NCBI RefSeq assembly: GCF_003019035.1 | Contig: NZ_CP027447.1 | DNA length: 64,000 nt | Direction: 5' to 3' (one strand) | DNA from: Escherichia coli | Lineage (GTDB): Bacteria > Pseudomonadota > Gammaproteobacteria > Enterobacterales > Enterobacteriaceae | In this document: piece after piece, positions 2,045 through 3,621 of the stretch | Layout of the letters: every line of letters starts with the position of its first letter | How positions within the stretch are numbered: the first letter of the stretch is position 1 | Translations under genes and position numbers: made by a program | Notes under the pieces: model-generated | Told to the model about the DNA's origin: nothing | Seen by the model: only the letters and a program-made list of their open reading frames with translations | Database searches by the model: none

Positions 2045-2218
2045 ATGACGACACTTATTTATTTGCAAATTCCTGTCCCTGAACCGATTCCTGGCGATCC
2101 TGTTCCAGTGCCCGATCCGATCCCTCGCCCGCAACCCATGCCTGACCCACCACCCGATGAAGAACCGATTAAATTGTCGCATCGTGAGCGTAGATCTGCG
2201 AGGATACGCGCCTGCTAA
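2045..2218 (+). CDS. Candidate small protein, 57 aa, proline-rich (MTTLIYLQIPVPEPIPGDPVPVPDPIPRPQPMPDPPPDEEPIKLSHRERRSARIRAC)
   Basis: ATG preceded by GGAGG at 5 nt spacing; below the ORF-track length cutoff; lies between the fnrS terminator and the dbpA start. Confidence 0.35.
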   Translation: MTTLIYLQIPVPEPIPGDPVPVPDPIPRPQPMPDPPPDEEPIKLSHRERRSARIRAC

Positions 2219-2247: not shown

Positions 2248-3621
2248 GTGACCGCTTTTTCTACCCTGAATGTTTTGCCTCCCGCCCAACTCACGAACCT
2301 TAATGAGTTGGGTTATTTAACCATGACGCTGGTGCAGGCCGCCGCGCTTCCGGCGATCCTTGCCGGAAAAGATGTTCGCGTGCAGGCGAAAACCGGCAGC
2401 GGCAAAACGGCGGCTTTTGGCCTCGGGCTGCTACAGAAAATTGATGCGTCGCTATTTCAGACCCAGGCTTTAGTGCTGTGTCCTACGCGTGAACTGGCGG
2501 ATCAGGTGGCAGGTGAATTGCGTCGGCTGGCGCGTTTTCTGCCAAATACCAAAATTTTGACGTTGTGCGGTGGTCAACCGTTCGGTATGCAGCGTGATTC
2601 GTTGCAACATGCGCCGCATATTATCGTGGCAACGCCGGGTCGTTTGCTGGATCACTTGCAAAAAGGCACGGTATCACTGGATGCGCTGAATACTTTGGTG
2701 ATGGATGAGGCCGACCGCATGCTGGATATGGGATTTAGCGATGCCATTGATGATGTCATCCGTTTTGCGCCTGCATCTCGACAGACGCTTTTGTTTTCGG
2801 CAACCTGGCCGGAAGCCATCACCGCAATCAGCGGACGAGTGCAACGCGATCCTTTAGCGATTGAAATTGACTCAACAGATGCTCTGCCACCTATTGAACA
2901 ACAATTTTATGAGACATCCAGCAAAGGCAAAATTCCGCTGTTGCAACGGTTATTAAGTTTGCATCAGCCATCCTCTTGCGTGGTGTTTTGCAATACCAAA
3001 AAAGATTGTCAGGCTGTCTGCGACGCGCTGAATGACATAGGGCAAAGTGCATTGTCGTTACATGGCGATCTGGAGCAACGTGACCGCGATCAGACCCTGG
3101 TACGTTTTGCTAACGGTAGCGCTCGTGTGCTGGTCGCGACGGATGTTGCTGCGCGTGGTCTTGATATTAAATCGCTTGAGCTGGTAGTGAACTTTGAACT
3201 GGCGTGGGACCCTGAAGTTCATGTACATCGCATCGGTCGTACAGCGCGTGCAGGAAATAGCGGTCTGGCGATCAGTTTCTGTGCCCCGGAAGAAGCACAG
3301 CGGGCCAATATCATTTCTGACATGTTGCAGATAAAACTTAACTGGCAAACGCCGCCAGTTAATAGTTCCATTGTGCCGCTGGAAGCAGAAATGGCAACGT
3401 TATGTATCGATGGCGGGAAAAAAGCCAAAATGCGCCCGGGTGATGTATTAGGTGCGCTGACAGGAGACATCGGGCTTGATGGCGCAGATATTGGCAAAAT
3501 CGCCGTGCATCCGGCGCATGTCTATGTCGCGGTGCGTCAGGCTGTTGCTCATAAAGCATGGAAACAGTTACAGGGCGGGAAGATTAAAGGAAAAACGTGC
3601 CGGGTGCGGTTATTAAAATAA
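2248..3621 (+). CDS. dbpA: ATP-dependent RNA helicase DbpA (DEAD-box, 23S rRNA specific), 457 aa
   Basis: ORF track; Walker A AKTGSGKT, DEAD motif VMDEAD, SAT motif. Confidence 0.95.
   Translation: MTAFSTLNVLPPAQLTNLNELGYLTMTLVQAAALPAILAGKDVRVQAKTGSGKTAAFGLGLLQKIDASLFQTQALVLCPTRELADQVAGELRRLARFLPNTKILTLCGGQPFGMQRDSLQHAPHIIVATPGRLLDHLQKGTVSLDALNTLVMDEADRMLDMGFSDAIDDVIRFAPASRQTLLFSATWPEAITAISGRVQRDPLAIEIDSTDALPPIEQQFYETSSKGKIPLLQRLLSLHQPSSCVVFCNTKKDCQAVCDALNDIGQSALSLHGDLEQRDRDQTLVRFANGSARVLVATDVAARGLDIKSLELVVNFELAWDPEVHVHRIGRTARAGNSGLAISFCAPEEAQRANIISDMLQIKLNWQTPPVNSSIVPLEAEMATLCIDGGKKAKMRPGDVLGALTGDIGLDGADIGKIAVHPAHVYVAVRQAVAHKAWKQLQGGKIKGKTCRVRLLK

Follow-up and report, generated by a model that had tools for sequence, protein, structure and literature searches.

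Between the small RNA gene fnrS and the RNA helicase gene dbpA of Escherichia coli lies a short, proline-rich open reading frame (ORF), which raises the question of whether it is a translated leader that controls dbpA or a gene for a small protein with a function of its own. The window, a 64,000-nt stretch of E. coli DNA, carries fnrS with its intrinsic terminator at 1866–1987 (Rfam RF01796 at 1866–1983, 134.8 bits; terminator scan, hairpin at 1960–1979 plus T-run) and dbpA, encoding the 457-residue ATP-dependent RNA helicase DbpA, at 2248–3621 with a GTG start codon. All window features described here lie on the + strand, and FnrS is the sole Rfam family matched at the locus.

The ORF between these genes opens with an ATG at 2045 and runs for 57 codons to a TAA at 2216–2218. 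It is preceded by a GGAGG Shine–Dalgarno (SD) sequence at 2035–2039, separated from the ATG by the 5-nt spacer GAAAT, and its product, MTTLIYLQIPVPEPIPGDPVPVPDPIPRPQPMPDPPPDEEPIKLSHRERRSARIRAC, contains XP repeats and a PDPPPDEEP segment. An earlier note on this DNA had described the frame, its SD, its product and its position in these terms, but two of its numbers need correction: the product contains 16 prolines among 57 residues (28%) rather than 20, and 29 nt, rather than 26 bp, separate the end of the stop codon from the dbpA GTG.

Identity and upstream context of the ORF

The ORF at 2045–2218 is the known E. coli small-protein gene ynaL and not a new gene. RefSeq feature tables name it ynaL, 'proline-rich small protein YnaL' (WP_001296046.1), and RefSeq annotation contains the locus in 5,390 of 5,426 complete E. 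coli genomes; the earlier description of the frame as unlisted holds for the first-stage ORF track, with its 60-residue cutoff, and not for RefSeq. The Pfam model PF23677 ('Protein YnaL-like') matches the product over its full length (residues 1–57; E = 2.1e-40) at 136.9 bits, well above the cutoff of 27. The encoded protein is 100% identical to that of strain K-12 and matches both the sequence table in PMC6001520 and entry 92 of the tetracycline ribosome profiling (TetRP) data. Start codon and position between fnrS and dbpA are also shared with K-12, so that the two are the same gene; they differ in the SD, which reads AGAGGG in K-12 and GGAGGG in the window strain.

Translation of ynaL in K-12 has been shown by published start-site profiling and epitope tagging. 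TetRP places an initiation peak exactly at the ATG (entry IVP7, signal 22.5; Nakahigashi et al. 2016, supplement to PMC4909307), and the gene was also selected for a Venus fusion in that study. YnaL carrying a chromosomal SPA tag was detected by immunoblot (VanOrsdel et al. 2018, PMC6001520). The small-protein reading that the earlier note had offered as one of two is borne out by these data together with the selection on the peptide described below. ynaL is a genuine, translated and conserved small-protein gene of the Enterobacteriaceae and Erwiniaceae, and the literature that we searched assigns YnaL no function.

In all taxa examined, fnrS is the constant upstream neighbor of ynaL. Both an exact fnrS 5′ motif and the terminator T-run were found upstream of the ynaL-like ORF in three of five Erwinia, Mixta and Phytobacter loci, and one of the two was found in the remaining two. 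We infer a candidate ynaL promoter at 1986–2013 from the sequence, consisting of a −35-like TTGCCT (1986–1991) that overlaps the T-run of the fnrS terminator, a 16-nt spacer and a −10-like TACCCT (2008–2013) within the conserved element CTAYNCTTWAAG. Sequence comparison finds the −10-like element kept as CTACCCT, CTACGCT or CTATGCT across Enterobacteriaceae and Erwiniaceae. A strict consensus promoter scan did not pick up the candidate, and its spacing is disrupted in two Citrobacter loci. Most loci have a purine-rich, SD-like sequence before ynaL (AAGGAGG and similar in Erwiniaceae), weakened to AAAGGG in three Escherichia loci, E. whittamii among them.

Selection on the YnaL peptide

We compared about 40 loci from about 15 genera, across which the ynaL frame and peptide are conserved far beyond chance. 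The dN/dS ratio over the proline core plus the tail is 0.04–0.23, indicating purifying selection at the level of the peptide. In the proline-rich core (codons 16–38, 2090–2158, PGDPVPVPDPIPRPQPMPDPPPD; PPP at 2147–2155), synonymous codon diversity is 0.50, compared with 0.47 in the body of dbpA: the amino acids are held and the third positions of the CCN codons drift. Enterobacteriaceae and Erwiniaceae homologs share the core, which is under purifying selection on its amino acid sequence. YnaL is most conserved over its last 40 or so residues, whereas the first 15 or so are free to vary. Natural length variants within E. coli are mostly in-frame indels of the XP repeats; across genera, indels are in-frame only, bar rare singletons, and the frame is retained.

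AlphaFold renders YnaL as an extended chain with no secondary structure and no fold (pTM 0.22), and a folded domain was rejected on this basis. With its alternating X-Pro acidic repeats and predicted extended rod, YnaL resembles the proline-rich spacer of TonB. The TonB models PF16031 (TonB_N) and NCBIfam NF008084 return E = 0.00029 and 0.68, with scores far under the family cut-offs (20.8 versus 315 bits and 11 versus 33), and YnaL has neither the transmembrane nor the C-terminal domain of TonB. Homology to TonB was therefore rejected, and the resemblance is compositional only.

The 3′ end of ynaL and the dbpA leader

The comparison of frame conservation with synonymous drift, which the earlier note had proposed as a check, has a split outcome: the core drifts at synonymous sites as coding sequence would, whereas the 3′ blocks of the gene are conserved at the nucleotide level. 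Block 1 (codons 39–46, 2159–2182, GAAGAACCGATTAAATTGTCGCAT) is almost invariant, synonymous sites included, and block 2 (codons 50–57 plus the first base of the stop codon, 2192–2216, AGATCTGCGAGGATACGCGCCTGCT) is invariant in all dbpA-adjacent loci. Together, the two blocks have a synonymous diversity of 0.03 (p = 6e-7 and 9e-9). Block 2 contains the rare codons AGA, AGG and ATA, and three of the rarest codons are retained within the last 8 codons of ynaL (P about 4e-5). In two Kosakonia cowanii-type loci (L038 and L039), a TGA at codon 47 terminates ynaL and the downstream 25-mer AGATCTGAGAGGATACGCGCCTGCT is intact but untranslated; by this comparison, block 2 is therefore a nucleotide-level RNA or DNA element of the dbpA leader. 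Among the loci compared, blocks 1 and 2 are present only where dbpA lies immediately downstream, and block 1 is missing from the Erwiniaceae and Phytobacter homologs that are not fused to dbpA.

Two further conserved stretches accompany the dbpA start. The 29-nt spacer at 2219–2247 includes a conserved ACCRCGAGA (2232–2240), which supplies the weak SD-like GAGA of dbpA, and block 4 (2246–2270, TTGTGACCGCTTTTTCTACCCTGAA) covers the translation start region, with an invariant GTG and depressed synonymous variation in dbpA codons 2–9 (diversity 0.18). Block 4 is also kept in Erwinia, where ynaL does not adjoin dbpA.

Several explanations of this invariance were tried and rejected. A dispersed binding motif is unlikely, because the window holds no second copy of block 1 or block 2 and each E. 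coli genome has only one copy of block 2. Dual coding fails in both alternative frames: in the +1 frame, four genera have no start, the ends vary and Citrobacter R56 has an in-frame stop, and the +2 frame is closed. Mimicry of the 23S rRNA target of DbpA (hairpin 92 region) or antisense pairing to 23S rRNA gave local alignment scores below the shuffled means, and pairing with the neighboring sRNA FnrS was weaker than for 96% of shuffles. For a long-range helix joining block 1 to the dbpA start, 98.4% of alignment cells are compatible (38–60% in slid controls), yet the helix has 0 compensatory pairs. Its duplex energy, −10.6 kcal/mol, is ordinary, since 18% of shuffles and 29% of genomic 28-mers reach it too, and the start codon is no more accessible once block 1 is masked. 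No stable local RNA structure is supported (minimum free energy (MFE) z-scores of −0.04 and +1.58), and the RNAalifold consensus of −9.05 kcal/mol, with a covariation term of −0.36, supports no alternative structure.

The invariant 3′ third might instead be a DNA-level internal promoter or operator from which dbpA is expressed independently, its overlap with ynaL being incidental, a possibility that we hold to be unlikely. Blocks 1 and 2 are conserved whether translated or not, they are single-copy and locus-specific, and their restriction to loci with dbpA immediately downstream would suit such an element. Against it, neither the scan nor manual inspection found a sigma-70-like hexamer pair with proper spacing inside the blocks, and no sigma-70 promoter was found by scan anywhere in ynaL. 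Manual pattern checks for sigma-54, sigma-E and extended −10 promoters inside ynaL fail in other genera, the sigma-54 and sigma-E spacing, judged by eye, failing in Enterobacter-type sequences. In Erwinia, moreover, dbpA has its own upstream region and carries blocks 3–4 but not blocks 1–2. A dbpA transcription start could still lie inside ynaL; neither ynaL nor dbpA is among the entries of the Adams 2021 supplements on transcript ends.

Blocks 1 and 2 may also constitute an undescribed cis-regulatory element of dbpA beneath the YnaL tail, in which the speed of ribosome transit over the prolines and rare codons would set dbpA initiation. We give this idea a low probability. If it is true, the arrangement would let the performance of ribosomes feed back on one of their assembly factors, DbpA being a helicase that acts on, or remodels, the peptidyl-transferase-centre region of 23S rRNA.

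Ordinary translational coupling between ynaL and dbpA is plausible in E. coli, judging from the arrangement of the two genes, because the stop of an ORF with a strong SD and an ATG is followed after 29 nt by a GTG start whose SD is weak. Both marks of a coupled pair, a stop within about 30 nt of the next start and a weak downstream initiation region, are seen here: the gap is 27–29 nt in most loci, 23 nt in one and 14 nt in Klebsiella and Raoultella, so that fused loci span 14–29 nt, and every locus examined has a GTG start for dbpA with a GAGA-type SD-like sequence only. The terminator scan of the window found none between ynaL and dbpA. Close coupling is not universal, because the stop in K. 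cowanii-type loci lies 62–63 nt from the dbpA start.

Stalling leader or independent peptide gene

The second reading in the earlier note, a proline-rich leader that couples dbpA expression to ribosome stalling, makes ynaL a cis-acting sensor of proline or EF-P. A shortage of EF-P or Pro-tRNA would delay or stall ribosomes at PDPPPD and so change dbpA expression, either by exposing the dbpA start or, after Elgamal et al. 2016, by uncoupling transcription from translation, whereupon Rho would load on the C-rich proline tract and reduce transcription of dbpA. Of this claim, the E. coli geometry stands, and it makes ordinary translational coupling plausible. The window and about 90% of homologs have an Asp-flanked PPP, and Erwiniaceae homologs have a second motif, DPPPH/Y-x-stop, a few nucleotides before a hairpin, in an attenuator-like geometry; some role of slow proline translation is therefore conceivable. 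The proline tract has much C and little G (C/G up to 2.55), but proline codons, being CCN, bring C-richness with them automatically.

Loss of EF-P gives Rho-dependent polarity at polyproline sites adjoining rut sites (Elgamal, Artsimovitch and Ibba 2016, PMC5021804), and the sites studied there resemble ynaL in placing polyproline in a C-rich stretch before more coding sequence. That phenomenon is general rather than a dedicated regulator, and it would predict less dbpA without EF-P. Proline leader ORFs are known from mgtP (PMC3641672), and mgtP and mgtL, which precede Salmonella mgtCBR and mgtA, have been linked to EF-P (PMC5299641, PMC6460261). Like ynaL, they are short translated ORFs upstream of a gene, with three consecutive proline codons and an SD of their own. 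However, mgtP has 17 codons, mutually exclusive stem-loops, a peptide that tolerates scrambling and no action in trans (Lee and Groisman 2012, PMC3641672), whereas ynaL, at 57 codons, encodes a strongly conserved peptide, shows no sign of alternative structures, is without PPP in some species and has no downstream gene in Mixta and Phytobacter.

A proline-sensing attenuator would conserve its consecutive proline codons, form mutually exclusive stem-loops over the ORF, encode a dispensable peptide and always lie in the 5′ leader of the regulated gene. In four loci (E. albertii, C. youngae and Citrobacter Cu233 and wls619), PSP replaces PPP and no PP occurs anywhere in the peptide. The structure tests described above support no alternative or sequestering structure, the duplex of block 1 with the dbpA initiation region is no stronger than that of 18–29% of controls, and no terminator separates the two genes. 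The peptide is constrained, with a core shared with Erwiniaceae, and about 25 of its residues are precisely conserved, which is needless for a codon-counting sensor because mgtP tolerates scrambling (PMC3641672). Finally, in Mixta calida, M. mediterraneensis and Phytobacter the order is zntB, fnrS and a ynaL-like ORF, followed by convergent ttcA, with no same-strand gene downstream. More broadly, the Erwiniaceae and Phytobacter genes end in a hairpin and do not have dbpA directly downstream; in Erwinia, the hairpin and ttcA lie between the ynaL homolog and dbpA. ynaL is not among the entries of the Δefp/ΔefpL pause tables (PMC11611912). We therefore consider a dedicated EF-P-sensing leader of dbpA improbable for the most part, and the comparison across genera favors a gene for a peptide in its own right over a leader that stalls at prolines.

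Stalling could also arise from the nascent chain itself. The C-terminal part of YnaL (...PIKLSHRERRSARIRAC-stop) would then contact the exit tunnel or the peptidyl-transferase centre, stall the ribosome near the stop codon and control the dbpA start, possibly in response to a ligand or a ribosome-targeting drug. SecM, TnaC and SpeFL are small ORFs directly upstream of the gene that they regulate, with conservation concentrated C-terminally, and ynaL is like them in both respects. The free N terminus and conserved last roughly 40 residues, the rare codons kept among the last 8 and the 29-nt distance from stop to dbpA start all agree with this picture, and the R-I-R of YnaL presumably resembles the +X+ macrolide arrest motif. 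Feedback would be biologically sensible, because the dbpA helicase acts at the peptidyl-transferase centre. We nevertheless regard an arrest peptide as very unlikely. Arrest-essential residues would be conserved as peptide, whereas codons 50–57 are invariant as nucleotides, even in L038 and L039, which do not translate them, so that the C-terminal conservation, unlike that of SecM, TnaC and SpeFL, outlives the loss of translation. The ORF of Klebsiella and Raoultella is longer by 4–7 codons and the position of the stop is therefore not fixed, the Erwiniaceae tail is different, and the E. coli locus shows no obvious rut site, terminator or structure that a stall could control. That the ORF is a chance frame within a conserved noncoding RNA or DNA region and not a gene, as the nucleotide-level conservation of its 3′ third might suggest, is already refuted by the published evidence of translation (PMC4909307, PMC6001520), the third-position drift with amino acids kept in codons 16–38, the retention of the frame across all genera, where frame-breaking indels are rare singletons, and the lack of conservation of the alternative frames.

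ynaL is a conserved small-protein gene whose peptide probably acts in trans, whose 3′ end is probably overprinted on the dbpA leader and whose relation to dbpA is most likely one of ordinary coupling. Immediately downstream of the fnrS terminator, the gene makes up a small unit by itself, with a conserved −10-like element, a strong SD and the ORF. The object of conservation would be the YnaL peptide itself, presumably an extended rod of polyproline-II type whose most likely role is that of a trans-acting ligand for binding or a spacer. In core Enterobacteriaceae, including the window strain, ynaL appears to have lost its terminator, such that its 3′ end now enters the dbpA leader and its last roughly 19 codons probably overprint a nucleotide-level element, blocks 1 and 2, of dbpA expression control. 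ynaL and dbpA are most likely co-transcribed in E. coli. Ribosomes finishing ynaL would terminate 29 nt 5′ of the weak-SD GTG of dbpA, and ynaL translation would most likely aid dbpA through ordinary translational coupling or anti-polarity, without dedicated proline or EF-P sensing.

As a gene discovery, the locus is of no value, ynaL having been annotated, named, profiled and tagged since 2016–2018, but two leads of modest value remain because YnaL is still without a function: a presumably self-acting peptide linked to fnrS and an invariant element of the dbpA leader. The comparison steers work from a polyproline leader of dbpA toward a peptide with a function of its own and a constant link to fnrS. 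Regulation of dbpA appears unstudied in the literature that we searched, and the 25-nt element in its leader, invariant across genera whether translated or not, is a candidate regulator of a ribosome-assembly helicase.

The ynaL gene and its neighbourhood

The proline-rich ORF between fnrS and dbpA, which an earlier note had regarded as unlisted, is almost certainly ynaL. A 521-nt query that includes the ORF finds the locus in 5,390 of the 5,426 complete E. coli genomes, and the annotations among the matches listed read ynaL, 'proline-rich small protein YnaL' or 'protein YnaL'. The protein is WP_001296046.1 in a K-12 derivative, and Pfam PF23677 ('Protein YnaL-like') matches the product, MTTLIYLQIPVPEPIPGDPVPVPDPIPRPQPMPDPPPDEEPIKLSHRERRSARIRAC, over its full length (136.9 bits; cutoff 27). 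VanOrsdel et al. 2018 (PMC6001520) place this exact sequence in the fnrS–dbpA interval, as one of the 36 small proteins whose chromosomal SPA-tagged versions they detected, and suggest that ynaL may share an operon with dbpA. In Nakahigashi et al. 2016 (PMC4909307) the identical 57-aa ORF appears as entry 92, 'IVP7', and tetracycline profiling gives an initiation signal at the same ATG; the ORF was picked for chromosomal Venus fusion, and its individual outcome is absent from the text. The initiation profiling and tag fusion proposed in the earlier note have therefore already been done, with a positive profiling signal and a positive SPA tag. In the literature searched, we found no paper on YnaL function and none testing EF-P dependence or coupling to dbpA.

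The proposed layout is borne out by the sequence: a GGAGG Shine–Dalgarno (SD) sequence at 2035–2039, the spacer GAAAT, an ATG at 2045, 57 sense codons and a TAA at 2216–2218. Two counts needed correction, as the product contains 16 prolines (28%) rather than 20, and the stop lies 29 nt, not 26 bp, from the dbpA GTG. Upstream are zntB (787–1770) and fnrS (1866–1983; Rfam RF01796, 134.8 bits), with the fnrS terminator at 1960–1987; downstream is dbpA (2248–3621), followed by ttcA on the opposite strand.

Several features of the surroundings are recorded separately. A 15-codon ORF (726–773; RefSeq 'protein YnaN'), whose end is 13 nt ahead of the zntB GTG, is another tiny upstream ORF and a possible zntB leader. 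Codon 28 of dbpA (2329–2331) is Leu (CTG) in the window and Pro (CCN) in K-12 and every other genus examined, which there forms part of MTPVQ, the DEAD-box Q-motif region. Of 5,300 E. coli genomes, only two, SCU-301 and E7-1N7, match the surrounding 61-nt segment exactly; Leu28 is a rare allele with a possible effect on the helicase. Six of the ~5,390 matches to the ynaL locus are on plasmid-labelled records, probably mis-assigned replicons or large chromosomal segments borne by plasmids.

Constraint on peptide and nucleotides

YnaL homologues occur in Escherichia, Citrobacter, Salmonella, Enterobacter, Klebsiella, Raoultella, Kosakonia, Leclercia, Lelliottia, Silvania, Pseudocitrobacter, Superficieibacter, Intestinirhabdus and others. 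Across a first comparison set of 34 loci, the order zntB-fnrS-ynaL-dbpA-ttcA is kept, the ynaL frame is intact and dbpA always starts with GTG. The SD is GGAGG-type in most of these loci, weakened to AAAGGG in three Escherichia loci and AGAGG-type in K-12 and Pseudocitrobacter. The N-terminal ~15 residues vary freely, and the remainder is near-invariant as protein.

The earlier note had proposed weighing frame conservation against synonymous drift, and the outcome differs along the gene. In the proline core (codons 16–38, 2090–2158), synonymous codon diversity is 0.50, close to the 0.47 of dbpA codons 10–100, and all four CCN codons are in use while the amino acids stay fixed; pairwise dN/dS over codons 16–57 is 0.04–0.23. 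By these comparative measures the core is under classic peptide-level selection, which, with the published translation, upholds the proposal of a genuine small protein. In codons 39–46 and 50–57, by contrast, the nucleotides themselves are fixed: diversity falls to 0.03 (P = 6e-7 versus the core and 9e-9 versus the dbpA body, Mann–Whitney), compared with 0.18 in dbpA codons 2–9. Every position is invariant in block 1 (2159–2182; GAA GAA CCG ATT AAA TTG TCG CAT) and in block 2 (2192–2216, including the first stop base; AGA TCT GCG AGG ATA CGC GCC TGC), and the three codons separating them differ among loci at the nucleotide and the amino-acid level alike. The rare codons AGA, AGG and ATA in the tail occur at 1.8, 2.1 and 4.8 per thousand in the window's long ORFs, and the probability of three such codons in eight is ~4e-5.

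Several explanations for the invariance were set aside. Stable RNA structure over blocks 1 and 2 is not supported. A block 1–dbpA start helix from a single-sequence fold, compatible in 98.4% of alignment cells versus 38–60% for slid controls, has zero compensatory changes and ordinary energy; masking block 1 leaves dbpA start-codon accessibility unchanged. The blocks neither resemble nor complement 23S rRNA near hairpin 92, the DbpA target; they show no pairing with FnrS, no conserved second reading frame and no sigma-70 consensus promoter. Neither block recurs in the window, and each E. coli genome has a single copy of block 2.

Within E. coli, the XP-repeat region (2090–2150) shows in-frame length polymorphism, with 42-, 46- and 68-aa alleles (locus L009; variants P0001, P0088 and P0112) derived from deletion or duplication of ~11–15-codon units; the C-terminal part is kept in all. 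Rare frameshift alleles occur at C-runs.

Variant forms and the ancestral unit

Across 1.84 billion proteins, an exhaustive profile search returned no more than 37 representative clusters; the family is narrow, with two variant forms. The first, 49 aa long and ending in EEPIK(L/M)SR, is frequent among Kosakonia cowanii and its relatives. Two diverged loci with this form, L038 and L039, have TGA in place of codon 47, directly followed by TAA in L038. The non-coding sequence 3′ of the TGA retains AGATCTGAGAGGATACGCGCCTGCT exactly, and its flanking bases differ between the two loci. Because this sequence is intact where it is untranslated, block 2 is constrained as nucleotides and not as peptide, and the E. 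coli YnaL tail, RSARIRAC, is best interpreted as an overprint on a dbpA-leader element.

The second form (46–51 aa), from Erwinia, Mixta and Phytobacter, retains the proline core SDPVPTDPVPIPDPIPxPQPxPDPPPD and ends in DPPPH/Y-x-stop, followed by a hairpin. A strong hairpin starts within ~5–7 nt of the stop in most of these five loci; none comparably compact is evident in Erwinia psidii. All five have signs of fnrS directly upstream (5′ motif, terminator T-run or both), a conserved CTAYNCTTWAAG element and a strong SD. Mixta calida, M. mediterraneensis and Phytobacter have a convergent ttcA next and no gene downstream on the same strand; in Erwinia the order is hairpin, ttcA, dbpA, and dbpA keeps its own start region, blocks 3–4 (GAGAGTAATTTGTGAGCGCTTTTTCAACCCTGA), with nothing like blocks 1 and 2. 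The fnrS linkage, these contexts and the Erwinia dbpA together therefore indicate that the ancestral unit consists of fnrS and, after it, a small autonomous gene for a proline peptide; juxtaposition to dbpA and blocks 1 and 2 are features of core Enterobacteriaceae. Scandinavium carries a shorter form whose C-terminus is different. With ttcA and dbpA downstream on the same strand, the Erwinia geometry is attenuator-like, and a PPP-paused ribosome could mask the 5′ arm of the terminator.

Possible roles of YnaL and its 3′ end

The variant forms show that ynaL can exist without any cis-regulated gene, and that the 3′ third of E. coli ynaL overlaps a nucleotide-level element tied to dbpA. We slightly favour a trans-acting role for the peptide. 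AlphaFold predicts an extended, fold-less chain (pTM 0.22; local confidence high in the proline tract alone), which fits a polyproline-II rod that may bind a partner or act as a spacer.

Translational coupling of ynaL to dbpA is a little less than an even prospect. The interval from the fnrS terminator to the SD of ynaL holds the CTAYNCTTWAAG element (CTACCCTTTAAG at 2007–2018), conserved in Enterobacteriaceae and Erwiniaceae. A candidate weak sigma-70 promoter (TTGCCT, 1986–1991; 16-nt spacer; TACCCT, 2008–2013) has its −35 overlapping the fnrS terminator T-run, and in two Citrobacter loci a 9-nt deletion disrupts its spacing. In E. coli this promoter probably drives co-transcription of ynaL and dbpA, and dbpA, with a GTG start and weak SD 29 nt past a well-initiated ORF, would probably gain from ordinary coupling.

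The ynaL–dbpA spacers of four Citrobacter, Silvania and Leclercia loci (L006, L012, L019 and L034) contain TGTGAG/CTTTTTTA, whose resemblance to the dbpA start TGTGACCGCTTTTTC suggests that part of the start region was duplicated. In four Silvania, Pseudocitrobacter and Leclercia loci with a 28-nt spacer (L019, L026, L029 and L034), the ynaL 3′ end is open in its +1 frame, in phase with dbpA; a Leclercia ATG at D38–E39, not conserved elsewhere, could in principle extend DbpA N-terminally by ~30 residues.

The earlier note's leader, in which EF-P-dependent stalling would control dbpA, is unlikely and went mostly unsupported. The DPPPD context is retained in ~90% of homologues, and Erwiniaceae forms carry another PPP, two codons short of the stop and adjoining the hairpin; EF-P loss causes Rho-dependent polarity where polyproline and rut sites are combined (PMC5021804), and the Salmonella mgtP leader is a proline-codon precedent (PMC3641672). 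However, PPP is naturally PSP, leaving no consecutive prolines, in E. albertii and three Citrobacter loci, some homologues have nothing downstream to regulate, alternative RNA structures are undetectable and, unlike mgtP, the YnaL peptide itself is conserved over ~25 residues. A C-terminal arrest-peptide version of this leader is less probable still, by about half.

The proline-rich ORF itself was already known; in the literature searched we found neither the peptide-versus-nucleotide split within ynaL nor the invariance of block 2 when untranslated. These observations are a modest lead rather than a discovery: they single out a concrete candidate for a cis-element ahead of dbpA and redirect the question of what YnaL does.
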